Assembly (NCBI GenBank): GCA_051294375.1
Contig: CM119265.1
Span: forward strand, 23,304,776 to 23,368,775
DNA length: 64,000 nt
Source of the DNA: Paraspadella gotoi
Lineage: Eukaryota; Animalia; Chaetognatha
Direction: 5' to 3'
Both the position numbers and the translations under genes were made by a program. The first letter of the stretch is position 1. Every line of letters starts with the position of its first letter. The notes under the pieces are model-generated. The model ran no database searches. It was not told the DNA's origin and saw only the letters and a program-made list of their open reading frames with translations. This document shows, in pieces, positions 16,158 to 51,996 of this stretch.

Positions 16158-16175
16158 TGGCGACCTTGCCAGGAT
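16158..16175 (+). other. Primer binding site, tRNA-Arg-like
   Basis: TGGCGACCTTGCCAGGAT 5 nt after the LTR end; resembles the tRNA-Arg PBS (TGGCGACC...) of 412/mdg1-type elements. Confidence 0.8.
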
Positions 16176-16859: not shown

Positions 16860-17340
16860 CTGCGCCGCGTAAAACCCTGACTTTCCTCGTTATACTGATG
16901 GAGATTCCATTCGCTGCCTTCTCAGCAGCGTTTGAGGGTGAGGCACAGGCTTGTGAGGTTCCACGGAAAAACTGGAGAGCAAAGTTCGTCGCTCTCTTGA
17001 AGGGATCGGCCTCGACCCTGCCGCTAAACTTCGTTATCAGAGGAACCGTCATCAACGTACGAGGACGTGCGCGACCATCTTGTCAGACTTTGGAGCGAGA
17101 GCAGGATGTGCGCACGCTATCGACTGTTGGAACGCCTCCAAGGAGGAAGGTGAGGGCCTTACAGCTTTTCGCTGTCAGGCTGAGAAACTTGACCGTTTTA
17201 AAGCGTACGGTCAGGAATACACCAGCCGACAGATAGAGGACAAGGCCCTGGAGATTTTTCTTGAACAAATCTCAAAGGGGAGCTTGCGACAAATGCGGTT
17301 GAGATTTCCCAAACAGCTGGGACGAGGCTGTAAGATTGCA
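16860..17340 (+). pseudogene. gag: gag capsid-like remnant
   Basis: FAAFSAAFEGEAQACEVPRKNWRAKFVALLKG...AYGQEY aligns with the gag-like ORF at 20126-21239; lies downstream of the PBS. Confidence 0.75.
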
Positions 17341-20125
17341 ATTAAAGTGATCTTACCGTCCTTTAAATAGGTGGCATCTCCCCTGATCGATCTTTCAATA
17401 AAGTTAACTTGGGTGGCCAGGTTGAAACAAATGAGGTGAGATGCGTCAATTTGACGACGTCATAATGAAGCGATGAAATCGGGAACCCTTTCTCGGCTGA
17501 GGAACAGCTGTTTTTTCTTTGTGGGGGAGGGTGTAACGGATTGAGAGAGAGAGGGAGTTCCACAAGGGGGGACGGAGATAAAAGGAGGAAGGCGGGACGC
17601 CAACCGCGCGGCGATTCTCCAAGAATCGCTCGCCGCATTTTCCGAGAATCGCCTTTCTCCGCGAACTGCAATTCTCGGAGAAAGGAGAAGGAGATAAAGA
17701 CAGGGAAATAGAAAGAGGAGAAGATATAAAAGTCAAGGAGGAAAGGAAGCGACACAGTGAGAGGAAAAAGACGTAAGAGAGGCATGAAAAATAGACCATC
17801 ATGCTGTACAAAATTTTTTAATGTTTTATCTACTTGTAACCAAAGAATAAATAAATAAACTCAAAACTACCTTCTTTCTTCTAAAAACTTTTCACGTTGG
17901 AACCAAACGGTTCACTTCGAGCTAGCGAGTTGTTTGTAGCGTTAGATGCTACATTTAATTTGAGTCCAGGACAGAATATAATTTTAATCCAGGACAAAAT
18001 ATAATTTTAATTTGAGTCCAGAACAAAATATTGGTTTAAATCGAGTTCAAAATGAAATATAAGTTTAACGAGTTATTTTATTGTTAATCGAATGTTGTGT
18101 TTTAAACAAAATATTAAGAAAAGCTTACCACAGTTCCGAAGCGGTGTCGTGCGGAAGTGTATAACACCCTGGGGGGATCCCCGCACTCCGAGGTGTGCAT
18201 CTCCTCTATAACGAATAGAGGAGGATCGGCGCACCGGCAGGTTCGTCTCTCGAGCGGCGAAGACCCCGCCGCCTAGAGTCAAGCGGCGCGTGAGATGTAG
18301 CTCGAGAGTCAGGACCTCCGTGTGAAGCCAAAAAGTGTAGGGAGCCAGGAGAGCGGCGGGTGTAGGCCGGACGAAGTTCGAAAAAATGAGGGACAGGACC
18401 CAGCGGAGTTGGTTGGGGTCCTGGATCTCGATGGGCATTGCCGAGAGGCCATTGGGAAGGAGTGCCGGCGGCCGAGGTGACAAAACCTCTGGAATGGCCA
18501 GAGGAGCCCCATTCTCGTCGAAGGCTCGGATGGCCAGGCCCCCGACGAAAATGTACTCTCTATGAGCCCCGCACGACGAACTAAGGAAGCAGAAGGAAAA
18601 TGGGGGAACATTTAAAAGAAAGGAAAAAACCAAAAGAACATCGAAGAGAAAATTAGAAATAAAATAAGCACCGAGGTAACCCAGTATTGTATAAATACAA
18701 ATAAAAAGGCTATAAAAAAAAAAAAACCGAATTCCTTAAAAATAAATGTTGTATGTACAATTATAACCCGAATGAATAATCAAAATTATTCCTAATTTTA
18801 GACGTAAAACATATTATTCAATAGTTATTTGTTATGTGACATAATAATCTCTTTGTTTAGAAAAATAGTTTTCTCCAGAAAAGGATTTCTCGAGCATTCC
18901 GTCTGTTGATCAATTTGTCTTGATTAATTGTTAATTATTAATTATTGATTATTGATTGATCATTTCGTCTCTTAATCAATTTCAACCTAAATGTTGTACC
19001 GTCATTATTATTATATTAGTTATCTAAACCTTGCCAAGTTTTTAAACTGGTACGGAAATTATTATTACTGTTGTCACAACAAACTTAATAGCCCACAATA
19101 TCCAAATTCTTATGTTATATTTGTTAACACGCCCTTACTACATTTATTGTAATACTGTAATTGACACCTATGAATGTACTGTACTTACATGAGTAAGATT
19201 CCGAGAAGGGCCAGGAGCAAAGCCATGGTAGGGTACCGAGAGGAAAATAATTGATAAATTTGTGAGTAGAAAATTTGGTGTCGAGAAAAAATGGAAATGA
19301 GTGAAAGTGATCTTACCGTCCTTTAAATAGGTGGNNNNNNNNNNNNNNNNNNNNNNNNNNNNNNNNNNNNNNNNNNNNNNNNNNNNNNNNNNNNNNNNNN
19401 NNNNNNNNNNNNNNNNNNNNNNNNNNNNNNNNNNNNNNNNNNNNNNNNNNNNNNNNNNNNNNNNNNNNNNNNNNNNNNNNNNNNNNNNNNNNNNNNNNNN
19501 NNNNNNNNNNNNNNNNNNNNNNNNNNNNNNNNNNNNNNNNNNNNNNNNNNNNNNNNNNNNNNNNNNNNNNNNNNNNNNNNNNNNNNNNNNNNNNNNNNNN
19601 NNNNNNNNNNNNNNNNNNNNNNNNNNNNNNNNNNNNNNNNNNNNNNNNNNNNNNNNNNNNNNNNNNNNNNNNNNNNNNNNNNNNNNNNNNNNNNNNNNNN
19701 NNNNNNNNNNNNNNNNNNNNNNNNNNNNNNNNNNNNNNNNNNNNNNNNNNNNNNNNNNNNNNNNNNNNNNNNNNNNNNNNNNNNNNNNNNNNNNNNNNNN
19801 NNNNNNNNNNNNNNNNNNNNNNNNNNNNNNNNNNNNNNNNNNNNNNNNNNNNNNNNNNNNNNNNNNNNNNNNNNNNNNNNNNNNNNNNNNNNNNNNNNNN
19901 NNNNNNNNNNNNNNNNNNNNNNNNNNNNNNNNNNNNNNNNNNNNNNNNNNNNNNNNNNNNNNNNNNNNNNNNNNNNNNNNNNNNNNNNNNNNNNNNNNNN
20001 NNNNNNNNNNNNNNNNNNNNNNNNNNNNNNNNNNNNNNNNNNNNNNNNNNNNNNNNNNNNNNNNNNNNNNNNNNNNNNNNNNNNNNNNNNNNNNNNNNNN
20101 NNNNNNNNNNNNNNNNNNNNNNNNN

Positions 20126-24659: not shown

Positions 24660-27600
24660 ATTTTAGACAGTCACAGTATGCAAAAAGATGGTTGCAAAGC
24701 TTCCTGACGTCGAGTTATTCGACAAATGGGCTTACTACGATTTGGAGCTAGTACTCCCACTTTCAAAGAAGGAGATCGAGTCTCTATCGAAAATACTAAC
24801 TTACAGCCCACTGAGTCCGATATTTTTTTTTTTGTTAGCGCCCAGTTCTACAAGGACCATTTGTCATCACTAGGAAACTGAGTGACTGTAAACTATGTAT
24901 CTGCCCAGATGGTAAGAGTGACGGATCGGCAGAACTGGCCGCAAGAATGCCGAGTGGTCTCCATGCAATATCAAAACTGATTGCGGATTCCGTCGAATTC
25001 TACCCGAAAGAGGTGAAAAGCGGGAATGAAAACAGAACCTTCCGGTGAGAGAAAAATCCCGTTCAATTTACAAGACTAAGATCTAATAAATGAACGAAAT
25101 GAGCGGGATTTAGCATGAAAATAATTTCTAACTGCCGATAGATAAAGTACGGTAAGAAGTTTGGAATGTAAAATTAATATAAAAAACGGGGGCAAAAAAA
25201 TCACAACAGTAAAAGACAATGGGAAAAAGTAAATTGGTCTAAAACTAACATAGTAAAACTGCTAACAATAACAATTAAACGTTTTAATATAAAGTGAAAT
25301 AGTAAACAAAAAGGAAAATATTAAAGAGATGAATAGCGTTCCGGCGGGACTTCCGGCGCACGCCTCAGAGAACCGACGAGGAGTGCGGAGGTGGTGGTGG
25401 CGCCGGGGCGGGCGGTCGCGCGGCGATGGGCTGGAGATCAACCAGACCTCAATCTGCGCCCGCCCCTCCGAGATTCGTCCTCAGTGAACCGCAGTCGATG
25501 GCCGCTGGGATCATGGAATCTCGGCGACCAGACGCTGAAATGGCACGAGAAAGTGGCGTCGAGCTGCAAAGCGTCTCGATGCCGCTACGCTCGGCCCGAC
25601 CACGCGAGAGGATGACGAGGAGGACGATGACGCTCATGAGATCGCCAGCGGTGGAAAACAAATGCCTCCTCTCTGAGAAAAGCGAAAAAATCAGTTTAAT
25701 ATAAAATAAATAAAAAAGGAGAATTGAACATATATGTAAAGATAATAAAATTTTAAAACTGAACAGTAGAAAGATTGCCAAGAATGTTCCAGTCTTACCG
25801 AGAAATTCAGGCGCGCGTCGTGGGGACGGTGGCGGACCCTGGCGGGGCCGCGTAAAACGGGAGAGCAAGCAGAAGCCGGGCGTGCCTGCCGTCTCAGAAC
25901 GCGTCCCACCGGCGCTCGTCGTCGTCGAAGTCGCTCGCTCGCGTCCCGTCCGTCTCCGTCGTTCCTCGCCCTTCGCGCGATGCCCGTCGTCGTCGTCGCT
26001 TCGTCGACATCGGTCTCAGCCGTTCGTCGTTCCGCAACCAGTCGTGTCGCCATCGTTGTTCGTTAAGAGGAGCAGGGGTCGACTAAGATGATTTGAAGGT
26101 CGTACCCCATCCCTTCACTGGATGAAAAAACAAAAGCAAAGAAAGAACATAAAAAATAATAAAAAGTCGGCGAAAACAATAACATTGGTAATAGGTTGAT
26201 AGACACTAAGAACGAATTTTACCTCTTCTAGCTTGTAGTCATGGGGCAGAGGTCCTCCGGCCGCCCCGTCCAGAAGTTGTAAACAATGCCGTCGAGATCC
26301 CGGTTGAGGAGGGTGAGTCACCCTTCAAGAGAGAAAGGCAAGTCAGTCACAGGGTTCGATTCCGAGGTGGGAGACGGGGGCCATTGCACGATGCGAGCGG
26401 AGCGTGATGGAAGCGCCGGATGGCCGAGAGAGGCCGGATGAAGTACAGGCCCTCCACATCTGCGTCGATCCAGGATCGGACGCGACGGCCCGGAGGGCCG
26501 ACTCCGCGTCAGTCAATCCAGTGGATGAGGGGAGTTAGCCAGTAGTTGGATCGCTCCATGTGCGGGGGCGGAAGAGGAAAGATACCTGACATGGAAAAGA
26601 CTACAGAACGAAATGCCCTCGCGGCGGGGGAGACTCTCTGGGGACGATGGGAACCGCCGAAAGGTGATCTCCGGAACAGAGGTCTCGGAACGGAGGGCTT
26701 CGTAGGATGAGATCGTCTCCTGAGCGATAAGATATTACAATGACGAGGAGGACGTCAGGAGTCATGCGAAAAGAGCGAGAGCATGACGCCTCCATACGAA
26801 GAGATAGAGAGGCGTCGGCAGAGCAGCGAAGGCGGAGTGACCTCACTTCACTGCAAACATTCGCAGGCGGTCGACGGCGTTTTGGGCGGGAATTCTGCAA
26901 AGAATAGTTTCTGGCGGGATGCGAGCTCGCGCGCCGATTGGAGTCTGATGGAGGCGGGCGAAGAGATCCGAGTTTGAGGTCCGAGTCCGGAGAGTTGGAC
27001 GCTCAGATCCCTCTCCCTGAAAGAAGTTGATAGGGAGTTCGCGGGATGCGATCAGGGGATGGGTGTGAGGCATTCAACTCAACCCCCCCTGGTCCCGAAG
27101 AATATCCCCGAGGAGAAAGTTGGTATTCACCAGGTCTCAGGCCACCCACTCCTATTTCCCCGAAGGTGGAGTAACGGGGGAGCAGGGTGGCGCCACGGTG
27201 AATCGAGAAACTGGCGCCGAGTCAGAAGTGGGGGCGTGGAAGGCGCGCAGACCGGGTCCGGGATGGCATTGGAAGGTGTTGGTACCTAAGAGTAAAGAGA
27301 AAAGAAACTTAATGAAAAAAAGAAATGGATAAATTGTAAACAAAGCATAAACAATGATGAGAATTCTGAAATAAACATACGGGAAAGGGGGGTCCTCCGA
27401 GTGGAAGATACGTGCTTGGTTCCTATCTCGAAAGGTGCCAGCGTGGGAAAAGGCGGAGCGTTGAGAGCCGAGGGGAGCGAACGGAGTCATCATGGGGTAC
27501 CCGAGATCCAAGGGAACCGCCGAAAATCCACTGATCCCACTACGGAATTGACGCCGGCGTCCTCCGGAAATGACGGGCGCGGTGTAGGAGCCGAACGAAC

Positions 27601-29860
27601 CACGGCTCCACACCAAGAATGCTGGGAGCGCGGGAAGGATACCCACATAGTTTCCCGCGGAGCCGATGCGAGCCCCGCAGATCCTCGGTGCACCCGGACG
27701 GGCGGATCCCTGTCGACGCGCCACCCGATGTGGGGAAGAACAGGGGAAACGGCGTCGACGCCCGGTAGCTGAATAAGTAGAAAGGAAATCGAAATAGAAA
27801 AGTTGAGAGGATGACAGAAGATACAATTATTTTAACTTGAGAGTCAAAGTTAAAAGTCAAGTTAAGGATAAATATAATTTTAAATCGATTTCAAATTGAA
27901 ACAAAGTTTAAGAGAGTGAGGTCGAATGAATGTGTTTTAAACAAAATATCAAGAAAAGCTTCACCACAGTCCCGAAACGAAGCCGCGCCGAGGTATACGG
28001 ATCCTGGGGGGATCCCCGCACCCGACGTTGCATCTCCTCTATAACGAATAGAGGAGGATGGCGCAGTGGCAGGTCTGGCGTTCTCGAGCGACGAAGACCC
28101 CCGCGCCTAGGGCATGCGGCGGGTGAGACGCAGCTCGAGGGTCAGAACCTCCGTATGGAGCGAGGAGTGTAGGAGCCCAGAAGTACCCAGGCGCGGGCCG
28201 AATATGGATCAGACATAAGAAGTTTGAGAAAATGAGGGAGACAGACCCAACGCGAGTTGTTTGCGGTCCTGGACCTCGACAGGGCGTTGCCGAGAGGCGT
28301 GGGGGAGAAGTGCCGGCCGGCGCGAGGGGCGTAACAACTCTGGAATGTCCAGAGGAGCACCATTTCAATCGTCGAGGGCCGGATGGCCAGACACGAGCGA
28401 AGAATACTACTACCCTGTGAGCCGCCGCCATGAACTGGAAAAAGCAGAACGGAAAGTGGGGACTCTTTAAAAGAGAGGAATAAAACAAAAGGACATCGAA
28501 AAAAATTAGAAATACAAATGAAGCACGAAGTAACCAGTATTGTAATAACATACCAAATAAAAAAGGCTTAAAAATAAAAAACGAATTCTTAAAAAAAAAA
28601 TGTCGTATGTCGAATTGTAATCAATATGAATAATCAGGATTATTCCTGTTATTGGACATACCATATTATCCAATATTATTGTCACGTGATTTAATAATCT
28701 CTTTGTTTAGAGTGAGCGTAGTTAACAAAGGAGAGCTCTCTTCTCCAAAAAAAGGATTTCTCGAACATTCCGTTTCGGATCGAATCTTGTCTCTTAATTA
28801 ATTATTACTATTAATTTTGATTAATCGATTGAATCATTTTCATCTTTTAATCATTTCAACATAAATGTTCGTGTTGTCATTATTATCAATAGTAGCTATC
28901 AAACATCTTTCAAGTTTTTGACTAGCATGGAACTTATTTATTGTTATCCATAACAACCTTATTATACAAACTTAACTAGCGCCCACAAATATCAAAATTA
29001 ATGTTATATTTGTTTTAACAATGCCTAACTAATTTGTTTAATACTGTTAACTTGACCCTTAACGAATGTATTGAACTTACATGAGCAGGCGAAGCCAGCG
29101 AGCAAGGCCCAAAACGAATGAGCCGAAAGGTGAGAAATGAGGCATGATGAGGTAGCCGGGAGAAAAATAAATGATAATCTACGTGAGGGGAAAGTTTGTT
29201 GCGAGGCGAAAATGAAAACTGCAGTGAAAGTGATCTTACCGCCATTTAAATCAGCCGTTGGCATCTCCCTCAACCGATACTTTCATAGAGTTACTTGGGT
29301 GGACAGGTTGAAACCAATGAGGTGAATACGCCATTTTGACGCCATCCGTAATAAACGATGAGATCGGGAAACTCCGTTTCCTTCGCTGAGGAACACTGTT
29401 TTTTCTGCCGGCGGAGGGTGTAAAGATTCGAGAAGAGAGAGGGAGGTTCAAAGAGAGGAACGGAGATGGAAAGAGGAAAGGCGGACGCCCAGCGCGAGTC
29501 GCGCGAGAGTCGCTCGCACGCTTTTTCGGACGGAAAAAGAAAGGAGATAGAGACAGGAAATAGAAGGATGGAGAAATATAAAAGGTGAAGGAAAAAGGAG
29601 AGCGGCAAGAGCAGAAAGTAGAGTAAGAGGGAAGACTTAGAGACAGTAAACCAAGAGAGAATAAAAGTCACGTATTAAGCCCCACGCTGGCTGTATTAAA
29701 ATTTCATCTTTTTGTATTATCTACATTGATAGAATTAAAATAAAACAACATAACCACTGCAAAACTACCTTCTTCCTTTCTAATAATATTCACGTTGGAA
29801 CCAAACGCGTTCCTTCGAGCTCAAGCGAGCTTTGGTTATCTGAAGCGTTAGAATGCTACA
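24660..29860 (+). mobile_element. Gypsy 3' half, copy 3: integrase tail, full antisense cassette, PPT, 3' LTR (29419-29860); indel-noisy
   Basis: Collinear with 44430-51753 minus its internal duplication. Confidence 0.85.
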
Positions 29861-33970: not shown

Positions 33971-33984
33971 TAAATCGAAGGCCC

Positions 33985-39194: not shown

Positions 39195-40195
39195 GATGGT
39201 GATGATGGTTTTTGGATTTTCTTTAAATGTCGCGCGCGATTGATTTGATTTGAGTTTTTTGGCGCAGCGAAGGGGATTAAGATTGGAGAAAAAAAGAGAA
39301 CGGTTATGACACACTCACCGCCTCCTCAATCTACAAAATCTATGTTTACATATATTTGTAAATTGATTAATCCATTACGCTGCCACCAGATAGTTTAATG
39401 TAGATATATAGATAGTCTAATTACTAGCAAAGAACATTAGAGTCGTGAATATCTTCTAGCTCATAGATTATTGTAAATAGAGAATGTACGGTTTGTGGTC
39501 ACTTACCGTGTGAGAGGCAGGAGCTTTGAGCAGAGATGAGGGAGAGAGGAGTGAGCAAAGATAGCGCTTGAGGGCCGCTTTTATACTAGTTAATGAAGCT
39601 ACTCCATCCAGCAACCACGCGCAAACCATGAGGCTGCTGGATCGTTAAAGCCTAATCTTTTATAACCAAATTATGTAACAGATTGAGAGAGAGAGGGAGT
39701 TCCAAAAGGAGGAACGGAGATAAAAAGAGAAAAGGCGGACGCCAGCGCGTCGCCGAGAATCGCTCGCCGCTTTTTCGAGAACGCTCGCCGCTTTTTCGGA
39801 GAAAGGAGAAGGAGATAGAGACAGGAGAATAGAAGGAGGAGAAGATATAAAAGGTGAAGGAAAAGGGAGAGCGGAAGGAAGCAGAGAAAAGTAAAGGAGA
39901 GAAAAGTCGTAGTACCACCATGCTGTAAAAAATTTCCTTTTTGTATTATCTACTTGTAATAAAAGATAAACAAATAAACTCAAACTACCTTCTTTCTTCT
40001 AAAAACTCCCACGTATAACTAAACGGTTCACGCAACAAAAAGAAAATCAGTTAGAGAAATCGCGCCGGTAATCACAAGGAGTCGGAAGCTGAGAAGGCTG
40101 ACCCTGCAGCCGTCCTGAACCCTGATCAAGTTCAGGAGCCAGCAAAGTGGACAGATTGGCGAAATTGGCAGGAAACGGATGAAGACCTGCAGGTA

Positions 40196-40730
40196 TTGAA
40201 AAAATGGCTAACGGAGGGAGCTCCAGGAAAAGCCCAAGCCCGACGGTATAGTCCGGCTTTGAGATCATATTATGCATCGTTGCCACAGTTAGTCTGCATG
40301 ACGGAGTCATTGTCAGAAAATGGACTGATGCCATGGACCCAGATAAAGAGCTCAATTTACCAGTGGTGCCAGAGGATCGTGTGGTTGAATTATTATTCAA
40401 TGCTCATGAACTCCAAGGGCATCCAGGGGTCACTAGGATGCGGGATCTAATCAGGATAAGTACTATTGGTACTCACGCGATGTCACCATCAATGAATATG
40501 TGATGACATGCAATATTTGTGCCAGAAGGAGGAAAGCAAACCTCCGGCACCTTGGTCCAGGACAAAGCTTCTTTTTTAACGAACGAGTAGCTATGGACAT
40601 AAAAGTAATGACAAAACCATCGAGACATGGTTTTGTGGCAATCTTACTGATAGTAGATTATTTTACTAGATTTGTGTCACTGACAAATCTAAATCACAAA
40701 CCGCAGAGGAAGTGTGGGCTAAGGCGTAGT
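40196..40730 (+). pseudogene. pol: Gypsy integrase N-terminal part (HHCC zinc finger and first Asp of DDE)
   Basis: AHELQGHPGV...TCNICAR...ERVAMDI...LLIVDYFTRFV, with frameshifts. Confidence 0.88.
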
Positions 40731-41003
40731 AAAATTCCCTAAGTTTCCAACTTATAATTAAAATTCTAAAAAGTGAGGAACGAACAACATTATATCTATG
40801 ACAATTTATGTATAAAAAAAATTTATAATAAATTTTACAATTTACGCAGTAGGCCATATTATACTAGTACTAAACAATAAATGTTAAAATTTCAAAACAG
40901 TTTTTTCTAAGATTTTTTTGCAGATTTGGATTCGTCATAAAGAAGTTGATAAAAAGAATATAACTCTTTTTGAAAAATTCCTTTCATTAAGTTATTTAAC
41001 AAG

Positions 41004-42042
41004 TTTGAGCAAACAATGTCGGATCTGCCTACGATAATTAATTAATTAATTGATTAATTAATTAATAGATTAATTAATTAATTAATAGATTAATTAATTA
41101 TAATTAATGATTAATTATAATTATATTCAGCTTGTCATCATCGATGTCCTTAAAATTGAGTCAGGACAGTTATTAAATGTTTTGTTTACATTTTATCAAA
41201 CAAACAAATATCCTCTATTATCGAGCCAGGCGGGCAAAGCCCGTCCTGTCTAGATTTTTTTGGTTTTAGCTTTCGGTCTCGCTTTTTTGCAATCATGGCT
41301 TCTGAAAGTGTGATATCATAGGGAGTTGAATTTTCATATATGGCTTCTAACATCAAGATCTTTAAAATTCTCATGTTTCATATCATATTTGGTATTTGTT
41401 TATGTTTTATTTACAAAACAAAAACGTTTTAATTATATGTCGCTCTGCTCTCTCTCTCTCTTTTTCTCCGTCACTGCTTCTTCTAAAAACGAGTTCCGGC
41501 TCTGCAGCGTCCTGTCCAGCTTCTTCTCTCTCTCTTCTTCTCTCTTTTTTTTTTTTTTTTTTTTTACAAAAAATTTTTAGATATAATGTGGGTCACTAAT
41601 GTAAAAACGATGCCGCGAACAGGGCGCGAACCCGGGTCCTTTGGTAGAGAATAGCTCACGATACGTGCGGCGCCATAAGTACTGCTGAATTCTTTAACGA
41701 GTAAAGGGGCTGTAGAGCTTCTCTCTCTCTCTCTCTTTTAATTATTATATATCGCTCTTTCTCTTTCTCTTTTTCTCTGCAGCGGCTGTCTCTCTCTCTC
41801 TCTCTTTTTTCTCTCTCTTCTCTCTGTCTCCTGGTGTGTCTGTCCTATCTGTCCGATTTTGCGTGATCGTTTGTTTTTGAAAAATTCTGATTATTTTTTT
41901 CTAAAACTTTTTATTATTGCCATTTATTCCGCGCTTTTTTTCAATACAAAATCCCATATTTTCATCCGAGATTTTCGTGGATTTATCTCTTCTTTTCTTT
42001 CTCTCTTTTTCTCTCTCTCTCTTTCTTTCTCTCTCTCTTCTT

Positions 42043-42079
<37 letters not shown>

Positions 42080-43637
42080 TACTCATCACGCATTTGTTTG
42101 TTTTATTGACTATCATCATCATCAAATGAATGACACATGCATCACATGCAGTGAATGACTATCATCGCATCAAATAATGATTATCATCGAATCAATTAAT
42201 CAATTCCTATTACATCAATAAATTACTATTACATCAATCAATTAGTATTACCTCAATCAATTACTATTACATCAAAATTCGTATCGCTGATTATCGTTTT
42301 TTCCCGTTTTTTCATTAATTTCTATATAGTGGGCTCTGGCTCGACTTGAGTCTTTTAAGATTTTTATTTTATGTCTCCTTCTCTCTCCTTCTCTCTCTAT
42401 TCTTCACTCCTCTCTTTCTCGCTCACTCTCTCTCTCTCTCACCTCTCTTTCTCTCTCTCCTCTTTTTTATGCATACGACGATCCTCATGCTTTTATAGAT
42501 TTTTTTAACTTGCAATCATTTTTTCAAACTTGCATAATTTTTTCAACTTGCATTCCGTCAAAACTTTATATCTAGCTTCTTCACTCACTTCCTACCGGCT
42601 CACAAAATTTCATCTCAATCTATCATGGGTTAAAATAAATAAAAGATTCAAGTAAATGTGACTCATATTTTTTTCATTTAAACTCATTTCCACTGGTACG
42701 TTTCCACTCGAAACTTATATCAAGCTTCGTCATACGTTTTCCTACCCACACACAAAATTCAACTCAATCTATCCATCCAATTATGATATAATTGAGTATT
42801 TATTGGTTAAAATAAGTAAAAAGATTTTAGTAAATTCGACTTATGTTTTTTCCATTTAAACTAATTTCCACTCACACGATTCCATCGAAATTTTATATCC
42901 AGCTTTATCACACACTTTCCTACCCACCCACAAAATTTAATTCCAATCAACCAGCCAATCACGAGTTATTGGAGCTTGCTAAGATGGGACGATGACGGAT
43001 TGATTGACTAATTAATTAATTATGATTAATTTATTTACTAATTATTAATTAACTGATTAATTATTTGATTTATTAAATACATCCTGCAGATACATTTAAT
43101 ATAAAAGGAAAAAGAAGCATAATCATTAGTAAACAGGTTTTTTTGTTTTTTTCCATATAAACTCATTTCCACTCAACTATTCCATCGAAACTTGATTTCC
43201 TTTCAATCACACACTTCCTACCCACATACAAAATTCCAGGTCAATCAGCCCATCCACTCATGAGCAATTGGTGTTCAAATAGTGAATATATTTTTGTTTT
43301 TTCCATTTAAACTCATTTCCAACTCGGACGATTCCATCGAACTTAATATCCAGCTCAATCACACACTTACCTATCCACACACAAAATTTCATTTAAATCC
43401 ATCCATCCAATCACGAGTAATTGGTGTTTTTTTGCTAAAGTGGGACGGGACGGACGGACGGACAGCAGACGGACGGACGGACATCATTTTTTTTGCATAA
43501 TTTATCATAATTCGATGTCTGACATGATATAAGTGTGCCCGACAATATTGAGGGGGCGGACCGACGGACCGAAAAAGTGAGTTATAAAAAGTGAGTTATA
43601 GATCGGGATCTGCTGATAAGCAGATCCGACTAAAAAA
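41004..43637 (+). mobile_element. Helentron/DINE-1-like non-autonomous element
   Basis: Sub-terminal inverted repeat GTCGGATCTGC (~41018) / GCAGATCCGAC (~43620); 3' hairpin GATCTGCT-GATA-AGCAGATC; GGAC microsatellite; internal sub-repeats. Confidence 0.6.
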
Positions 43638-43968
43638 AGCTATATTTTAAGCTGAAAATCAACTTTTTTATATTAAATATAGTTTTTTTAATTTTTAACC
43701 CAGTTAAATGAAAGAATTTTTAAAAAATGATTCTATATTTTCTTTTATCAACTTTTGACGACGGTATTCAAATCTGCAAATCAAAATTAGAAAAGCCTTT
43801 TTTTAAAATTTTTGATTTTATAAGGATAGTTACTATATATAAATTAGCCTACTGCGAAAATTAAAAAACATAAAATAATTTTTTTTTACAAATTAATGTT
43901 CACTGATGGTATGTTGTTCATAAGATTGGCTTTAGAATTTTCGTATGTAACTTTCACTACGCCTTAGT

Positions 43969-44871
43969 GTGGGCGGCCTACATGGACAACTGGTGTGCGT
44001 ATTTTTGGCGCCAGTTTCGCCATCCACACACGGATTTCGGCGTGCAGTTCGCCGCTCAAAAAGGCTACCCACCTTTTTAAATTATGGAATTCACAAGACC
44101 CATACTGTCTCTTTCCATCCTCAAAGTGATGGTTTGGCAGAAAGACAAATCCGAACCCTAAATAACACCTTGTCTAAAATCCTGATGGAGGTTGAGGTCG
44201 AGCAGGAGAAATTAGGTGTGAAGGAGCAAACTGATTGGGGAGATTTGACCCGGAAAGTTCAGTTTGCTATGAATGCTTTACCATGTAAATTCACAGGGTT
44301 TAGTCCATTTCGAGTCTTAACCGGACAAGACATGAATGTCCCGTTGTCATTGACCTTTCCATTGGAAGACGGACGGCAGGTGCGTGAAGAGTTACCTGGG
44401 GCAATTAGGGGATTGCAAGTTAGACAGTCACAGGTATTCAAAGCTGTTGCAAAGCATTCTGACGTTGAGTTATCTCGACAAAAGGCTTACTACGATTTGC
44501 GGGCTAGTACTCCCACTTTCAAAGAAGGAGATCGGGTCCTCTATCGAAAATACTACCTACAGCCCAATGACGTCCGATCGTTTAGCGCCCAGTTCTACAA
44601 GGAACCCTTTGTCATCACTAGAAAACTGAGTGATGTAAACTATGTCATCTGCCCAGGTGGTAAGAGTGACGGGTCGGCAGAACATGGCCGAAAGGAATGC
44701 CGAGTGGTCCATGCCAATCAGATCAAACTGATTGAGGATTCCGTCGGGGTTCCTACCCGAGAGGTTGAAAAGCGGGATGAAAACAAACGACCATTCCGCG
44801 AGAGAAAAGTCCCTGTTCATTTACAAGACTATGATCTAACTAATGAACGAAATGAACGGGATTTAGTTTGA
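43969..44871 (+). CDS. pol: Gypsy integrase core/C-terminal fragment (homology from ~44075)
   Basis: GIHKTHTVSFHPQSDGLAERQIRTL (catalytic Glu), TGFSPFRVLTG, RQKAYYD, FKEGDRVL, EPFVI (GPY/F-like), VVHANQIK. Confidence 0.92.
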   Translation: MGGLHGQLVCVFLAPVSPSTHGFRRAVRRSKRLPTFLNYGIHKTHTVSFHPQSDGLAERQIRTLNNTLSKILMEVEVEQEKLGVKEQTDWGDLTRKVQFAMNALPCKFTGFSPFRVLTGQDMNVPLSLTFPLEDGRQVREELPGAIRGLQVRQSQVFKAVAKHSDVELSRQKAYYDLRASTPTFKEGDRVLYRKYYLQPNDVRSFSAQFYKEPFVITRKLSDVNYVICPGGKSDGSAEHGRKECRVVHANQIKLIEDSVGVPTREVEKRDENKRPFRERKVPVHLQDYDLTNERNERDLV

Positions 44872-45099
44872 ACAATTTCTGACTGGCCGATAGATAAAGT
44901 AAGGTAAGAAGTGTGGAACAAAGTAAAATAAATATAAAAAACACCGGGGGCAAAAAATAACAAACAGTAAAAGGCAATGGGAAAAAGTTTAAGTTTGCCA
45001 AAAAACTAACATAGTAAAAACTGACTAACAATAACGAGAATAACGAAATAACGTTTTAATGTAAAATTGAAATATTAAACAAAGAAAAATTTAAAGAGA

Positions 45100-48076
45100 T
45101 GTATAACGTTCCGGCGGGACTCCGGCGCCGCGCCTCAGAGACCGACGAGGAGGTCGAGGAGGTGGTGGTGGCGCCGGGGCGGGCGGTGGCGGCGATGGGT
45201 GGAGATCCACCAGGAACTTCAATATCTCCGCCCCCGCCTCCGTATGAGTCGTCCTCACGTGAACCGTTCATCGATGGCCGCCGGATCATCGATATCTCTG
45301 GGCGACACAGAAGACCGGCTAATGAAATGGCGAAAAAAAGGCAATGCGTCGAGTGCAGACGTCTCGATCGCGCTACGCTAACGTCTGGGACGCACGACAG
45401 CAGCGTCGAAAGTAAGAATGACGAGGGGACGATGAACGCCACGTTGATGCGCCCCCGCGGTGAAAACAAATCGCTCTCTGGAGAAAGGAGAAAATCAGTT
45501 TTAACTAAAAAATAAATTAAAAAAGGAGAATGAGATATATGTAAAAGATATAAAAATATAAAACTGAAGAGAAAGATGCCAAGAATTGTTCCAGACTCTT
45601 ACCAGAAGAAATTCAGAGCGCGTCGGTGGGGACGGTGGCGGGCCCTGACGCGCGCCGCAGTAATCGGGAGAGCAAGAGAGGGCGTGGCCCCCGTACGCTC
45701 TCCGTCGTCGTGGTAAGGGGCGTACGTCACCGTCGGCGCCTCCGTCGTCGTCGTCGCCTTCGTCGACATCGCCGTTGTCGTCGTCGCCTTCGTCGCCTTC
45801 GCCGACATCGCCGTCGTCGTCGTCGCCTTCGTCGTCGTCACCACCGTCGTCGTCGCCATCGTTGTCGTCGTTGTTGAGGAGGAGAGGAGGTCGACTAGGA
45901 TTTTGAAGGTCGTACCCCCATCCCTTCACTGGATGAAAAACAAAGAAAAAGAAAGAAAAATAAAAAATAATAAAAAGTCGGCGAAAAAAAATGAACCATG
46001 GTAATAGGTTGATAGACGACTAAGAACGAATTTTACTCTTCTCTTGTAGTCATGGGGGAGGAGAGTCCTCCGGCGCCCGTCAAGAAGTTGTAAACAATGC
46101 CGTCGAGATCCCCGGTGATGGAGGGTGAGTCCCTTCCAAGAGGAAAGGGAAGTCAGTCACCAGGGTCTCGACTTCTCGAAAGGTGGGAGACGGGGCATGA
46201 CCGGATGGAGAGGAGCGATGATGGAAGCCGGTTGGGAAAGACCGGATGAGTAAGGCCCTCCACCATCTCGTCGATCCAGGACTCGGACGACGGGCCCGGA
46301 GCCGACTCCGCGTCATCAATCCAGTGGATGAGGGGAGTGGCCAGTGGATCGCTCATTGGTGCGCGGAGGCGGGAAAGAGGAAGATCCTGGAGATGGAGAT
46401 CGAGAAAATGCCTCTGCGCGGGGGGGAGACTCTCTGGGGGACGAGGGACCGGAAAGGTGATCTCCGGAACAGAGAGAGGTCTCCGGGAACCAAAGGCAGA
46501 AGAGAAAAGATTAGGCAGGTTGTTTTATCTTGAAATCTTGTTTCTCCTGAGTTTTAGGATGAATGATTGTAAATTCTGACGAGGAGTGACGTTCCCTCGT
46601 GGGTGTAGTCAGTGTGGAAATGTCGAAGGAATCTGCGACGGAGGAGCAGCTGGGACGCCCTCCATACGAAGAGGTAGTTGTAGGGGGGTTCCTGGTCCAG
46701 TAAGTGGAGATGCAGGATGAGTGGAGTTATGTGACCTCACTCTCCTGCCAAACAATCTCGGGCGTGACGCGACGGCGTTTTGGGGGATTTTGGAAAAATG
46801 TTTCTCTGGGGGATGGAGCTCGGCGTCTACTGGAATCTGTGGAGGCGGGGGAGGAGGAATCCGAGTTGAGGTCCGAGTCTGGAGAGTTGGACCTCAGATC
46901 CCTCTCCCCTGGAAGGTGATGGTAGGGAGGCCGAGGATTGACCAGGGGATGGGTGGTGGGCATTGCCATCCCTGGTCCGAAGAAGATCCCCGGGAGAAAG
47001 TTGGTGTTAACGGTCTCAGCCACCCAGCGCCTACTTTCCCCCGAAGTCGGAGTAGCGGGGGTGCATGTGGCGCCACGGTGAATGAGGAATTGGCGCCGAG
47101 TCAGTAGTGGGGGCGTGGGAGGGCATGAGACCGGGTCCGGGACGGCGTTGGAAGGTGGTTGGTACCTAGGAGTAAAAAGAAAAGAAATTTAAAGAAAAGG
47201 AAATGGATAAATTATAAACAAAGCATAAATGATGAGAATTCTGAAATAACATACGGGAAAGGGGGGTCCTCCGAGTGGAAGATAGTGCTTGGCTCCACTA
47301 TCTCGAAGGTGCCACGTCGAGGAAAAGGGGAGCGTTGAGAGGCCGAGGGGAGCGGGGAGTCATCATGGCGGTACCCCGAGATCCAAGGGGAGCCGCCGAA
47401 GATCCACTGCTCCCACCGGATTTGACGCTCGGCGTCCTCCGGAAACTGACGGCGCGGGTGTAGGAGCCGAACGACCAGGGCTCCACACCATGAATGCTGG
47501 GAGCGCCGGGGAAGTAGGCCCACATAGTTTCCGGGGACGCCGATGCAGCCCCGCAGATCCTCGGTGGCCCCGACGGGGGGATCCCTGTCGACGCGCCACC
47601 CCATGTGGGGAAAACAAGGGCAGCTGTGTCGACGCCCGGGTAGCTGAAGAAGTAAGAAAGAAATTGAAAAGTTGAGAAAAGAACAAGATATAAATTTTAA
47701 ATCGAGTTTAAAATGAAACAAGTTTAACAAGTTATTTTAGTGTTAAGTCGAATGGGGTGTTTTAAACAAAACATCAAGAAAAGCTTACCACAGTTCCGAA
47801 GCGGTGTCGTGCCGAAGTGTACAAAATCCTGGGGGGATCCCCGCACTCCGATGTATGCATCTCCTCTATAACGAATAGAGGAGGATCGGCGCAGTGGCAG
47901 GTCTGTCGTTCCCGAGTGACGAAGACCCCGCCGCCTAGAGTCATGCGGCGAGTGAGACGTAGCTCGAGAGTCAGAACCTCCGTGTGAAGCCGAGGAGTGT
48001 AGGGAGCCAGGAGACCAGGGGGCGTAGGCCGGATAAAGTTCGAAAAAATGAGGGACAGAACCCAGCGGAGTTGGTT
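45100..48076 (-). pseudogene. Antisense cassette copy 4 (exon 2 to 47789, exon 3 47643-47255, exon 4 from 47165, Thr-rich ORF2 and distal exon)
   Basis: Same splice sites as other copies; exon 3 is an open 389 nt. Confidence 0.78.
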
Positions 48077-48276
48077 NNNNNNNNNNTCGTCGTTGTTGAG
48101 GAGGTGAGGGGGTCGACTAAGATAATCTGGAGGTCGTACCCCCATCCCCTCACTGGATAAAAAAATAAAGGAAGAAAGAAAAATAAAAAATAATAAAAAG
48201 TCAGCGGAAAAGGATGAACCATGGTAATAGGTTTATAGACGACTAAGAACGAATTTTTTACCTCTTCTGTTTGTAG

Positions 48277-51083
48277 TCATGGGGGAGGCGAGTCCTCCGG
48301 CGCCCCGTCAAGAAGTTGTAGGACAATGCCGTCGAGATCCCCGGGGGTGGAGGGTGAGTCCCCTTCCAAGAGGAAAGGGAAATCCGTCACCAGGGTCTCG
48401 ACTTCTCGAAAGGTGGGAGATGGGGGCATGACCGGATGAAGAGGAGCTAGAATGGAGGCCGGATGGGAAAGACCGGATGGAGTGAGGCTCTCCACCATCT
48501 CGTCGATCCAAGACTCGGACGACGGGCATGGAGCCGACTCCTCGTCATCAATCCAGTGGATGAGGGGGGGCGGCCAATGGATCGCTCATGGTGGAGGGCG
48601 GAGGCGGAAAATCCGGAGGCGGAAAATTGGAAAAAATGCCCTCTGCCGGGGGGAGACTCTTGGGGCGACGAGGGACCGGAAAGGTGATCTCCGGAACAGA
48701 GGTCTCCGGAACCGGAGGGGTTGAGGATGAATCGTCTCCGGGATGATATAAATCGAGAGGAGGCGTCGGAGTCTGGAGAAGAGGGAGAGCTGACGCCTCC
48801 ATACGAAGAGGTAGAGGGGGTTCAGGGAGAGCAGGAGAGGGAGTGACCTCACTCTCCTGCCAAACATCTCGCGGCGTCGCGACGCGTTGTGGGGATTCTG
48901 AAAGAATGTTTCTTGGGGATGGAGCCTGGCGCCCCCCGATTGGGTCTGTGGAGGCTGGGGAAGAGGAATCCGAGTTGAGGTCCGAGTCCGGAGAGTTGGA
49001 CCTCAGATCCCTCTCCCCTGAAAGAAGTTGATAGGGAGGTCGGGGATGGATCAGGGATGGGTGTGGGCACCAACATGCCCTGGTTCGCAAGAATATCCCC
49101 GGGGAGGAAATTGAGATTCACGGTCTCCGCCACCCAGCTCCTACTTTCTCCCCGAATTGAAGTGGAGTAGCGGGGAGCAGGTGGCGCCACGTGAGGAAGA
49201 GAATTGGCGCCGAGTCAGAAGTGGGGGCGTGGAAGGGCGCGAGACCGCGTCCGGGATGGGCGTTGGAAGGTGGTTGGTACCTAGAGTAAAGAGAAAAGAA
49301 ATTTAATGAAAAAAGAATGGATAAATTGTAAACAAAGCATAAAATGATGGAATTCTGAAATAACATACGGGAAAGGGGGGTCCTCCGAGTGGAAGATAGT
49401 GCTTGGCTCCACTATCTCGAAGGTGCCGCGTTGAGGAAAAGGGGAGGTTGAGAGGCCGAGGGGAGCAGGAGTCATCATTGCGGGTACCCGAGATCCAAGG
49501 GGAGCCGCCGAAAATCCACTGCTCCCACCGGATTTGACGCTCGGCGTCCTCCGGAAACTGACGGCGCGGGTGTAGGAGCCGAACGACCAGGGCTCCACAC
49601 CACAGAATGCTGGGAGCGCCGGGGAAGTACCCACATAGTTTCCGGGGACGCCGATGCAGCCCCGCAGATCCTCGGTGGCCCCGACGGGCGGATCCCTGTC
49701 GACGCGCCACCCATGTGGGGGAAAACAGAGGGCAACTGCGTCGACGCCCGGGTAGCTGAATAAGTAGAAAGGAAATCGAAATGAAAAGTTGAGAGGAGGA
49801 CAGAATAATTATTTTAACTTGAGAGTCAAAGTTAAAAGTCAAGTTAAGGATAAAATATAAATTTTAAATCGATTTCAAATTGAAACATAAGTTTAACGAG
49901 TTATTAGTGTTAGTCGAATGGTGTGTTTTAAACAAAATATCAAGAAAAGCTTACCACAGAGTCCCGAAGCGAAGCCGCGCCGAGGTGATAACATCCTGGG
50001 GGGATCCCGCACTCCGACGTGTGCATCTCCTCTATAACGAATAGAGGAGATCGCGCAGTGGCAGGTCTGTCGTTCTCGAGCGACGAAGACCCCGCCGCCT
50101 AGGGTCATGGCGGCGGTGAGACGTAGCTCGGAGTCAGAACCTCCGTATGGAGCCGAGGAGTGTAGGGAGCCAGGAGTCCAGGGCGTGGGGCCGAATAAGT
50201 TCGAAAAAATGAGGGACAGGACAGCGGACGCTTATAGTGGGGTCCTGGACCTCGACGGGCGTTGCGGAGAGGCCGTGAGTGAGAAGTGCCGGCGGCCGAG
50301 GTGGTAAAGACTCTGGAATGGCCAGGGGAGCACCATTTTCGTTGAGGGCCCGGATGGCCAGGCCACCGACAAAAATATACTCTCTGTGAGCCCCGCACGA
50401 CGAACTAAAAAAGCAGAAGGAAAATGTGGGAACTTTTAAAAAGAGAGGAATAAACCAAAGGAACATCGAAAAGAAAATTAGAAATAAAAATGAGCACCGA
50501 AGTAACCCGGTATTGTATAAATACAAATAAAAAAGCTAAAAATAAAAACCGAATTCCTTAAAAAATAAATGTCGTATGTACGATTATAACCCAAATGAAT
50601 AATCAAGATTATTCCTGTCATTAGACGTAAAACATATTATTCAATAGTTATTTTTACGTGACTTAATAATCTCTTTGTTTAGAATGATAGTTAACAAAGG
50701 AGAGCTTTCTCCAAAAAAGGATTTATCGAGCATTCCGTTTTCGATCAATTTGTCTTAATTAATTCTTAACTATTGATTATTGATTATTGATTGATCATTT
50801 CGTCTTTTAATCAATTTCAACCTAAATGTTGTACTGTCCTTATTATTATAGTAACTTTCTAAACATGGTCAAGTTTTTGAACTTGTATGGAACTTATTAT
50901 TGTTGTCATAACAAACTTAATAGCCCACAATATCCAAAATTTAATATGTTATATTTGTGAAAACGCCCTACTACATTTGTTGTAATACTGTAATTGACAC
51001 TTGTGAATGTACTGTACTTACATGAGCAGGAGCCAAGAGGCAAGGGCCAGGATGCATGAGCCGAGAGTGAGGAGTGAGGCCAT
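48277..51083 (-). pseudogene. Antisense ORF1 copy 5 (51083-51022, 50404-49955, 49755-49369, 49280-48277)
   Basis: MASLLTLGSCILALASWLLLI-SSCGAHREYIFVGG; conserved GT-AG sites; scattered indels. Confidence 0.8.
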
Positions 51084-51996
51084 GGTGGGGTAACGAGAGA
51101 AAAATAAACGATAAATTTGTGAGGGAAAAAATTTGGTGTCGGGGAAAAAATGAAAATGAGTGAAAGTGATCTTACCGTCCTTTAAATAGGTGGCATCTCC
51201 CCCGGCCGATCTTTCAATAAAGTTAACTTGGGTGGCCAGGTTGAAACAAATGAGGTGAGATACGTCAATTTGACGACATCGTAATGAAACGATGAGATCG
51301 GGAACCCTTTCTTCGCTGAGGAACAGCTGTTTTTCTTTGTGGGGGAGGGTGTAACAGATTGAGAGAGAGAGGGAGTTCCAAAAGGAGGAACGGAGATAAA
51401 AAGAGGAAAAGGCGGGACGCCAGCCGCGTCGCGCGAGAATCGCTCGCCGCTTTTTCCGAGAACCGCTCGCCGCTTTTTCGGAGAAAGGAGAAGGAGATAG
51501 AGACAGGGAAATAGAAGGAGGAGAAGATATAAAAGGTGAAGGAAAAGGGAGAGCGGAAGGAAGCAGTGAAAAGTAAAGGAGAGAAAAGTCGTAGACCACC
51601 ATGCTGTAAAAAATTTCCTTTTTGTATTATCTACTTGTAATAAAAGACTAAACAAATAAACTCAAAACTACCTTCTTTCTTCTAAAAACTCCCACGTTAT
51701 AACTAAACGGTTCACGCCGAGCTAGCGAGTTGTTTGTAGCGTTAGATGCTACATTTAGTCATTTTCCCATTAGATTATCACTTCTTTTCTACTTCTCTTA
51801 CATCGTCAGTTTCGTCACAATTCTTCACCTTCTCCTCACTTTTATTATTATTATTTTCGTCTTCTACACTACTTACCTTTTTCATATTACTTTGTTTTGT
51901 TTGTTTTAATTTGTTTTCTTAAATTTACTTACCAACGAAACGAAAGAAAAACCATCAAATAACATAGCTATAAAATATAAACCTAAAAATGTTCAG

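Follow-up and report, generated by a model that had tools for sequence, protein, structure and literature searches.

A putative intron-containing antisense gene between integrase and the 3' LTR of a Ty3/Gypsy element in Paraspadella gotoi

The window surveyed in this study, a stretch of 64,000 nucleotides from Paraspadella gotoi contig CM119265.1, carries a copy of a Ty3/Gypsy element at 39.67-51.75 kb. Its 5' LTR (39674..40033, plus strand) lacks about the last 36 nt and differs by three substitutions, over 359 aligned bases, from the 3' LTR (51350..51753, plus strand), which is 404 nt long and bounded by TG...CA. A pol remnant (40055..40719, plus strand) comprises the linker and the frameshifted N-terminus of integrase, with the H2C2 motif and the start of the core; no gag or RT match was found upstream of it, or elsewhere in this copy, by tblastn with P0001. 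Integrase is then interrupted by a DNA-transposon-like insertion (40720..43966), whose 8-bp flanking duplication suggests a hAT-like element, and resumes with the end of the core and the C-terminal domain (43967..44871, plus strand; Integrase_p58_C, E 1.6e-6). The stop codon at 44869-44871 agrees with the integrase end at 44871 given in an earlier, sequence-only reading of this DNA. Between this stop and a polypurine tract (PPT; 51336..51349, plus strand) lies the cassette considered here.

The features of the family are those of Ty3/Gypsy elements. Seven LTR copies occur in the window, a PPT was found in three of the copies described below (A, C and E) and in a nested copy, and 4-bp target duplications were observed as TGAT and TTTA, with a further ATTA/TTTA pair carrying one mismatch. 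The sequence TGGCGACC following the LTR at 16152 resembles a primer binding site (PBS), a call made on sequence likeness only. Integrase is the last pol domain before the cassette, and its best relative, P0001 (40%), is ordered PR-RT-RH-IN. All 11 of the named integrase matches, among 34 matches in total, are from animals, at only 27-33% identity, while PF02023 was present in 10 of the 34; animal Gypsy matches range from 24 to 40%. The family may be Osvaldo/Gmr1-like; the undescribed animal Gypsy lineage suggested in the sequence-only reading is a candidate placement only.

Five copies of the cassette are present in the window at the places where they had been reported, all of them partial or frameshifted, so that none is both complete and free of frameshifts. 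The element carrying copy A (10374..14377; cassette at 10.37-13.95 kb on the minus strand, LTR on the plus strand) is 5'-truncated and holds exons 1-5, PPT and LTR with few indels. Copy B (14459..19334, minus strand; cassette at 14.46-15.72 and 17.96-19.33 kb) retains exons 1-4 in part, its intron 2 being split by a nested LTR-PBS-gag-PPT-LTR derivative (15724-17953) flanked by the TTTA duplication; this deletion derivative itself lacks the cassette. In copy C (24663..29860; cassette at 25.1-29.4 kb on the minus strand, pol and LTR on the plus strand) the end of integrase, the whole six-exon cassette, PPT and LTR are preserved in the noisiest sequence. The element at 39.67-51.75 kb contains two partial cassettes, D (44.87-48.08 kb) and E (48.09-51.35 kb), meeting at a gap of 10 N (48077-48086). 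The cassette thus adjoins integrase in two copies (C and D) and PPT+LTR in three (A, C and E), and the linkage proposed earlier between the block and pol, PPT and LTR is borne out among the window copies. Indel events number 28-88 per kb in C, D and E (70-88 in C) and 6-13 per kb for A against B. Copies D and E differ by about 8-9% substitutions, some 60% of them transitions, and C resembles E in exons 2-4a and D in exon 4b; a plain assembly duplicate was rejected on these substitutions and affinities, and D and E may come from separate copies wrongly joined across the gap. Two other GC-rich stretches (20-21 kb and 52-54 kb) were considered as sister cassettes and rejected, being gag genes on the minus strand.

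The antisense cassette spans approximately 4.3 kb and consists of six exon-like blocks and five introns, all read from the minus strand. In copy E, coding exon 1 (51022..51083) opens with an ATG in an ACCATGG context and encodes a hydrophobic, signal-peptide-like stretch, followed by intron 1 (50405..51021, 617 nt), exon 2 (49955..50404), intron 2 (49756..49954), exon 3 (49369..49755), intron 3 (49281..49368), exon 4 (48262..49280), intron 4 (48153..48261) and the start of exon 5 (48087..48152), which is cut by the gap. Copy D, cut by the same gap, supplies the 3' part of exon 2 (47789..48076), exon 3 (47255..47643, with an open frame), intron 3 (47166..47254), exon 4 (46036..47165, with a divergent stretch of about 240 bp at approximately 46490-46730), exon 5 (45603..45928), intron 5 (45478..45602, GTAAGA...CAG) and exon 6 (45090..45477). 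The frame of exons 1-4, referred to here as ORF-A, ends in exon 4 (stop at 48279-48277 in E) and has a length of 624 codons in copy A, 634 in copy E and, in the noisy C, 656. The sequence-only reading had described four exons with phases (2,0,2) and an ORF of roughly 620 aa; exons 1-4, their phases and their length (about 625 codons) hold, and the number of exons has to be revised, to six exon-like blocks with a second coding frame. A TATA-like motif, TATTTAAA (51181..51188, minus strand), lies about 160 nt inside the PPT as a likely antisense promoter; it is found in the three full promoter regions of A, B and E and in the nested copy, and is altered in C. A likely poly(A) signal, ATTAAA, is placed at 45055..45060 on the minus strand, and again at 25288 in C. 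Neither AATAAA nor ATTAAA occurs from the ORF-A stop to the end of the cassette within the sequence of A, D and E, which fits a single transcript.

The splice sites are better conserved than the introns that they bound. Across introns 1-4, only 3 of 84 donor 6-mer positions and 1 of 42 acceptor 3-mer positions differ between copies, whereas inside the introns 426 of 3057 positions do. Single-base deviations occur at donor 2 of C and at donor 4 of D. The three junctions named beforehand (19189/18580, 15274/15185 and 51022/50404) are all GT-AG introns. Composition follows the same boundaries, with a GC content in copy A of 0.60-0.63 in exons 2-5 versus 0.24-0.28 in introns 1-4. In one contig from a public run (X1), intron 3 is absent and the joint falls precisely on its GT-AG ends (exon-3 donor to exon-4 acceptor, CT..AC on the plus strand), the acceptor side being that of copy D and the donor side that of copy E; this joint comes from a single contig of depth 6.3 with 27 letters on its short side, could lie on either strand, and belongs to a run whose RNA origin is a guess. 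Intron 3 was the only splice joint among the 15 of 20 joints listed, with none there for introns 1, 2, 4 and 5; unspliced public-run contigs span introns 1 and 3, and runs X2 and X3 matched low-complexity stretches only. The full-length genomic RNA of a retroelement reads antisense introns backwards, so that they stay unspliced and are copied by reverse transcription. The cassette shows a way for an intron-bearing gene to travel in an RNA-copied element.

Codon comparisons between copies indicate that exons 2-4 are under purifying selection, with dN/dS of 0.13-0.29 and hence not near 1, the value that would have spoken against the earlier claim. The ratio is 0.16 for exon 2 (436 codon pairs), 0.13 for exon 3 (442), 0.29 and 0.20 for exon 4 (698 and 162) and 0.47 for exon 5 (137), these pairs sharing one reference copy and so not being independent; other same-strand frames give 0.81-2.8. 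The values are probably biased low, because synonymous divergence in the exons (0.22-0.45) exceeds intron divergence (0.07-0.23), and pN in exon 4 (0.12-0.13) is close to the intron level. Variable columns fall at the third codon position in 55/91, 35/51, 94/180 and 30/47 cases (p 1e-7 to 2e-5), and each exon has 0-2 stop-codon pairs in the coding frame versus 7-28 in the opposite-strand mirror frame. The same coding signal is given by A and B, the clean pair. Exon 5 shows third-position bias at its non-repetitive ends, with 8 of 10 variable sites at its 3' end (p 0.003), and exon 6, available only in the indel-rich C and D, is a putative coding exon. GC3 is 0.55-0.76 in the cassette, 0.44-0.45 in the family integrase and 0.62-0.85 in host WD40-like exons of the window. 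These comparisons support the view that the element carries an antisense gene which contains introns and is under selection; that core of the accessory-gene reading stands, and as a full account it falls short, having missed exons 5-6, the second frame and the signal-peptide-like exon 1.

By eye and hydropathy, exon 1 reads as a signal peptide, with a cleavable build in three of four copies. Its mean hydropathy is 2.85 in A, 3.02 in B and 2.01 in E, the noisy C not being hydrophobic (0.79), and a 24-nt in-frame indel between subfamilies leaves frame and hydrophobicity intact. The ORF-A product of about 625 aa would comprise a signal peptide, a domain of about 340 aa in which eight cysteines recur, and a tail of Pro, Ser and acidic residues; in copy E, exon 4 encodes a Cys motif, a Ser-rich tract, a basic motif and that tail.

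A second frame has a candidate start at an ATGA in which the ORF-A stop overlaps an ATG of the exon-5 frame, in all four copies that could be compared (46050..46053, 10893-10896, about 26240 and 48277-48280, minus strand). Exon 5 is Thr-rich and mucin-like (28% Thr in A), with a weak Pfam Mucin match in D (E 0.0014) that falls below the cut-off. The candidate frame of exon 6 encodes a hydrophobic stretch (11-mers of 3.45 in C and 2.45 in D), then basic residues in both copies, then a Pro-rich segment; a membrane anchor is likely here, as judged by eye and hydropathy. A conserved phase-1 donor-like GT lies inside exon 4 (48852 in E). Three further candidates were rejected: a signal peptide for exon 5 read from 'intron 4' because of its conserved ACCATGG, which is in frame in two of four copies by different indels and out of frame in A and D; read-through of the ORF-A stop, which meets the next stop at the exon-5 acceptor; and a -1 frameshift at that stop, no slippery heptamer common to the copies being seen by eye.

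No recognisable family had been noted for the protein, and none emerged from protein, Pfam or structure searches, in which exons 2 and 3 were the queries against the large protein libraries. Exon 3 had no homologue among longer proteins (274 candidates) and no match at E 0.001 among 1.84 billion representatives, and the exon-2 alignment likewise had none among longer proteins (7999 candidates). In the ESM Atlas, exon 2 reached 0.88 at best, in unnamed clusters, and exon 3 gave nothing usable. Pfam held no family for the cassette protein, with no zinc-finger, TRP28 or SMC match, and phage tblastn was also blank. No related loci were found in viral contigs with exon 3, integrase and P0001, or in metagenomes with exon 3 and integrase. 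Single-exon structure models had mean pLDDT of 31.7 and 33.9 and were unusable, so the absence of Foldseek matches at E 0.001 for the exon-2 model is meaningless.

The explanation favoured here, somewhat tentatively, is that the selected, intron-split antisense gene encodes extracellular accessory proteins, one secreted and Cys-containing and one mucin-like and membrane-bound, that would aid the exit of particles, their survival between cells or their attachment to cells. A TATA-type promoter just inside the PPT would drive a six-exon antisense mRNA ending at the ATTAAA near the integrase stop, and the exon 5-6 frame would add a stalk rich in Thr, then a membrane anchor and a tail rich in Pro. 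That frame might be reached through the conserved phase-1 donor within exon 4, in which case an ORF-A isoform with an anchor would result, or translation might restart at the ATG that overlaps the ORF-A stop; alternative splicing accounts for the second frame equally well as stop-restart does. Such products would putatively serve cell-to-cell spread, and env takes the same slot in related elements (PMC5408684, available in part). Against this explanation, no homologue or fold in any of the searches links the protein to particle biology.

A nuclear accessory regulator akin to the antisense genes of plants and fungi is less probable, though it deserves consideration; it would have a Cys/His metal-binding domain, a motif for nuclear localisation and an acidic tail rich in Pro and Ser, and would control transcription of the element or counter host silencing. 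A PKRR(R)-type basic motif occurs in A, B, C and D, CxC and His spacing is seen in exons 2-3, ORF-A ends in short acidic amphipathic motifs, and GENE23 of Grande is nuclear (PMC7264820, available in part). However, the basic motif is changed in E, a selected Thr-rich exon fits poorly, and no zinc-finger, TRP28 or SMC family was matched; exon 1 would have to be a membrane tether or be bypassed, yet its signal-peptide build is kept in three of four copies across the in-frame indel. It is rather unlikely that the element took up the cassette from its host as a gene for an extracellular protein, of benefit to the host or mere amplified cargo, with no part in the element cycle. Host-type introns, the core promoter and a GC3 between those of the family integrase and the host WD40-like exons would suit it, but the cassette is multi-copy, and it is under selection in subfamilies that differ from one another by 3-26% in their exon segments. 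Transduced genes, by the available text of PMC7264820, usually number one or a few copies and lie in sense orientation. For exons 2 and 3 the searches gave no cellular homologue, although the libraries may lack the host proteome.

A true fusogenic env turned round, with its origin in an envelope of the paramyxovirus-F type such as bdelloid TelKA carries, is very improbable. Such envelopes are known in invertebrate LTR elements (the accessible part of PMC5408684), and the only matches of exon 2 in the Protein Data Bank (E up to 10) were to two F chains of Newcastle disease virus (E 0.052 and 0.074). These matches are not significant, and their 28-residue Cys-containing stretch and 19-residue stretch stand in reversed order in F, so are not collinear; exons 3 and 4 had no F match, and Fusion_gly in Pfam gave none at E up to 10. 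Inspection and hydropathy found no conserved RXXR, fusion peptide, coiled coil or C-terminal anchor in ORF-A, and the gene lies on the strand opposite gag-pol. The chance is slimmest that the coding signal is a by-product of antisense RNA, for which a regulatory role is possible (PMC7264820, in part), or of assembly noise and base composition. The indel load of C, D and E, the N gap and the want of a complete frameshift-free ORF in any copy are what such a reading would predict, but not the third-position bias, the scarcity of stop-codon pairs relative to the mirror frame, the exact GT-AG joint in independent data (run X1) or the same signal in the clean pair A and B. Doubtful is a broader version of the preferred extracellular reading, in which an animal Gypsy lineage would have swapped env for a self-promoted, backwards, five-intron unit. 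Through alternative splicing or AUGA stop-restart, a single transcript of this unit would yield two glycoproteins, one soluble and the other anchored in the membrane with a mucin stalk; this envelope-like route between cells would use a protein family without known relative, perhaps what is left of a paramyxovirus-F-type fusogen after rearrangement.

The layout of an extra antisense gene is itself already known from plants and fungi (PMC7264820). As far as the accessible portions of the cited texts go, what such genes do in LTR retrotransposons is described as unsettled, and a search for antisense and spliced transcripts has been urged (PMC7264820). Those with data, the plant examples studied among them, point to the nucleus; the extracellular role proposed for the present products is read from sequence features and, if true, this slot can also carry extracellular tools and the line between retrotransposon and virus is blurred by a route other than env capture. 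A literature search, with most subscription papers and supplements outside its reach, turned up no paper describing an animal Gypsy element with a spliced antisense gene for a secreted protein.

The closest parallels in layout are the antisense additional ORFs between pol and the 3' LTR (aORF-3R) of maize Grande (gene23), rice RIRE2, Silene Retand and bean PvRetro13 (PMC7264820; PMC11963269, each in part), which resemble the cassette in lying antisense at this position, in occurring in most copies and in being conserved. An upstream promoter of its own has been shown for Grande and is predicted here. The present cassette differs in having five introns, a word absent from the available text of PMC11963269, in its probable animal host, and in its predicted signal peptide, Thr-rich and anchor exons and two frames, compared with nuclear TRP28 or SMC products; no sequence similarity was found between them. 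Going by the descriptions in PMC7264820, PMC8365987 and PMC4227169, which cite Zhao et al. (2011), the brtn gene of Boty-like Gypsy elements in Botrytis and Sclerotinia is likewise an additional antisense gene at this position, in a Gypsy element from outside the plants; Boty is fungal with a chromodomain and 5-bp duplications (PMC4227169), whereas the present element has 4-bp duplications and animal-like integrase matches. Errantivirus env (PMC3383448), the paramyxovirus-F env of bdelloid TelKA and the TM ORF3s of Vesta (PMC5408684), in the passages available, resemble it as genes downstream of pol with predicted secretory products of about 600 aa bearing cysteines and an anchor. Those typically come from spliced element messages, and the TelKA env is traceable to a viral fusogen (PMC3383448; PMC5408684), in contrast to the present gene, which is antisense, keeps its introns in DNA and has no significant fusogen match. 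The overlap of stop and start after a long ORF also recalls the AUGA coupling of caliciviruses and influenza B and the reinitiation of SART1 (PMC10275272, in part). What appears to set the cassette apart from known antisense genes is its predicted extracellular products in two frames.

The window is a set of nested mobile elements in a noisy assembly of a eukaryote, with five N gaps. Self-comparison recovered all five antisense blocks proposed by the sequence-only reading, as cassette copies A (10.4-13.9 kb), B (14.5-19.3 kb), C (25.1-29.4 kb), D (44.9-48.1 kb) and E (48.1-51.3 kb), and the proposed 4.3 kb for an uninterrupted cassette is the length of the single cassette C. The post-integrase span of the flagged element (39674-51753) holds two partial cassettes joined at a 10-N gap: D extends from exon 6 into the middle of exon 2, and E reaches from the beginning of exon 5 up to exon 1, with 8-9% divergence between them, and C is a mosaic of both. 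Within exon 4 of D, a stretch of about 240 bp (46490-46730) does not resemble the other copies; it opens about 10 nt past a conserved phase-1 donor-like site. The indel rate is 4-13 events per kb when A, B and parts of D are compared with one another, and 28-88 per kb in comparisons involving C, E or the remainder of D; the flagged element's LTR pair shows 3 substitutions and 10 indels over 359 bases. Given these high indel rates and LTR differences that are mostly indels, many frameshifts probably reflect sequencing error, and the element is likely to be young.

GT-AG introns separate the GC-rich blocks on the minus strand (block GC 0.60-0.63 and intron GC 0.24-0.28 in copy A), in the phases originally read, 2, 0 and 2. 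Introns 1-4 of copy A measure 614, 210, about 86 and 102 nt. The anticipated ORF of about 620 aa agrees with exons 1-4 (624 codons in A, 634 in E), here called ORF-A; the four exons hold, and two more follow its stop. Splice sites are better kept than the intron interiors, with differences between copies at 3/84 positions in donor 6-mers and 1/42 in acceptor 3-mers against 426/3057 in the interiors; C at donor 2 and D at donor 4 each depart by one base. Donors 1, 5, 2, 4 and 3 of copy A rank 1, 3, 5, 6 and 19 among 144 GT sites, scored with a donor matrix.

The expected constraint was also found: dN/dS across copies in the proposed frame is 0.16 for exon 2, 0.13 for exon 3 and 0.29 and 0.20 for two parts of exon 4, ratios that are probably biased low because synonymous divergence of the exons exceeds intron divergence. 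Ratios in the two alternative frames of the same strand are 0.81-2.8. The mirror frame of the opposite strand, with common third positions, has 7-28 stop-codon pairs in each segment, compared with 0-2 in the proposed frame. Counted column-wise with copy C left out, third positions account for 55/91, 35/51, 94/180 and 30/47 of the variable columns in the four segments. Exons 2-3 have a non-synonymous divergence (0.03-0.07) under most intron values (0.07-0.23); that of exon 4 is near the intron level.

Three public sequencing runs were compared with 43900-51800, one of which, X1, covers 29 of 30 bins; it is strandless, its RNA status is a guess and it may be related to the source of the window, from which its contigs differ by numerous short indels (at least 12 rows). 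One X1 joint, 47165 to 49369 with CT..AC ends (one of 15 joints listed, of 20), unites the exon-3 donor of E with the exon-4 acceptor of D and removes intron 3 exactly, in one contig of depth 6.3 with a short side of 27 letters. The 15 joints listed of the 20 include none for the other introns. Introns 1 and 3 are also covered unspliced by other X1 contigs, as expected of genomic RNA or DNA. The antisense gene is very probably real and element-borne, spliced and under selection, with a function that can be suggested from sequence.

Seven LTR copies have TG...CA ends or are cut, four of them preceded by a PPT. Duplications of 4 bp flank a solo LTR (4634-5027), a nested derivative (15724-17953) and the flagged element (one mismatch). 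The derivative, non-autonomous and situated in copy B intron 2 with a TTTA duplication, comprises LTR, PBS, gag fragment, the last ~190 nt before the PPT, and LTR; its own LTRs differ by 11%, and the 5' one matches the solo LTR at 98%. The ORF that stops at 44871 encodes a Gypsy integrase (Integrase_p58_C) whose best relative is a 1487-aa PR-RT-RH-IN polyprotein (P0001, 40% identity); 11 of its 34 matches are named, all animal proteins at 27-33%. An animal host and an Osvaldo/Gmr1-like position are both plausible. The flagged copy is without gag and RT, and its integrase is interrupted by 3.2 kb of inserted DNA flanked by an 8-bp duplication. Within this hAT-like non-autonomous element (40720-43966), a tRNA-like stretch lies near 41.6 kb and GGAC repeats are found near 43.45 kb; more end fragments occur at 6947-7236 and ~8800-8850.

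Several neighbours were also recorded. Gag genes of related Gypsy families at 20126-21300 and 52700-54000 (minus strand) have a motif in common with the nested gag (16.9-17.3 kb) and are thus homologous to it. An RT fragment at 8414-8734 (plus strand), 33% similar to P0001, is followed by two GC-rich minus-strand ORFs without a Pfam match (8870-9435, with a 41% relative at 37405-37563, and 10040-10354), which could belong to a sister element as its antisense cargo. A divergent host WD40-repeat gene has exons of very high GC3 (0.62-0.85) at 33815-37300 (plus strand), among microsatellite-rich introns. Segments 21682-24624 and 29893-32219 are 90% identical duplicates, both beginning with a 60-nt LTR end fragment and containing a ~26-bp purine-rich tandem array along with short exon-like stretches of high GC3. 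At 38490-39600 (minus strand), a TATA and a short leader that includes a donor site accompany a repetitive ORF of 200 aa, rich in Gly, Ala and Glu, which has no Pfam match and points away from the 5' LTR.

Exon 1 encodes a hydrophobic stretch of 12-21 codons (mean hydropathy 2.85 in A, 3.02 in B, 2.01 in E and 0.79 in noisy C), with small residues following in exon 2, and this reads as the build of a predicted cleavable signal peptide; a 24-nt in-frame indel in exon 1 distinguishes A/B from C/E. Beyond the ORF-A stop come intron 4, a Thr-rich exon 5, intron 5, exon 6 (C and D only) and ATTAAA. Judged by its substitutions, exon 5 codes for protein in the Thr-rich frame, with a dN/dS of 0.47 and third positions making up 8/10 of the variable columns at the 3' end and 7/12 (p 0.07) at the 5' end; the putative exon 6 frame has a hydrophobic stretch and then basic residues in both copies. 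This second frame would be reachable either by an ATG overlapping the ORF-A stop (4/4 copies) or by the phase-1 donor-like GT within exon 4, kept in 5/5 and matching the exon-5 acceptor in phase. A TATA-like motif lies ~160 nt inside the PPT and ~100 nt before the ATG. Five nucleotides after it is a fully conserved, strong donor-like GTAAGA (13773, 19316, 29239 and 51175, minus strand; rank 2 of 144 GT sites), through which a leader from an upstream start could be spliced, perhaps to an AG conserved in intron 4.

As the sequence-only reading held, no family is recognisable: Pfam, ESM Atlas, protein libraries and phage tblastn gave no relative for exons 2 or 3, and single-exon structure predictions gave no usable fold. 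Exons 2-4 encode eight cysteines that recur across copies; after them come a Ser-rich tract, a basic PKRR(R) motif (4/5 copies) and a Pro/Ser/acidic tail. In the structure bank exon 2 matches only Newcastle disease virus F chains (E 0.052 and 0.074), over two short stretches in reversed order, which may serve as a lead, not as evidence.

Sense introns are spliced out of retroelement genomic RNA, while antisense introns go unrecognised and are copied, so that the cassette could be carried as a self-contained gene. Selection across subfamilies suggests that the element would need, or profit from, it. Extracellular products appear to be the best reading because of the predicted signal peptide, the even cysteine count, the Thr-rich stalk and the anchor-like helix. 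Since the position is equivalent to that of env, we tentatively favour, as the most likely job, an extracellular accessory protein for particle exit, shielding or attachment. That the product is instead a nuclear regulator seems unlikely, and that the cassette is host cargo rather less likely again. A true fusogenic env is improbable, and the cassette departs from env in two respects, lying on the strand opposite to gag-pol and, by inspection and hydropathy, showing no RXXR site, fusion peptide, coiled coil and anchor together in ORF-A. A non-coding or artefactual signal is very improbable.

Grande, RIRE2, Retand, PvRetro13 and fungal Boty are described as carrying extra antisense genes of unknown function between pol and the 3' LTR, the Grande gene having its own promoter and a nuclear product (PMC7264820). 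TRP28 is reported in most Retand antisense ORFs (PMC11963269), and bdelloid LTR elements carry varied ORF3s, one a paramyxovirus-F env (PMC5408684). Relevant to a second frame, viruses are known to restart translation at AUGA downstream of long ORFs, and SART1 to reinitiate (PMC10275272). The cassette resembles the antisense class in position and conservation, and differs from the members described so far by its five introns, its predicted secretory features and its two frames.
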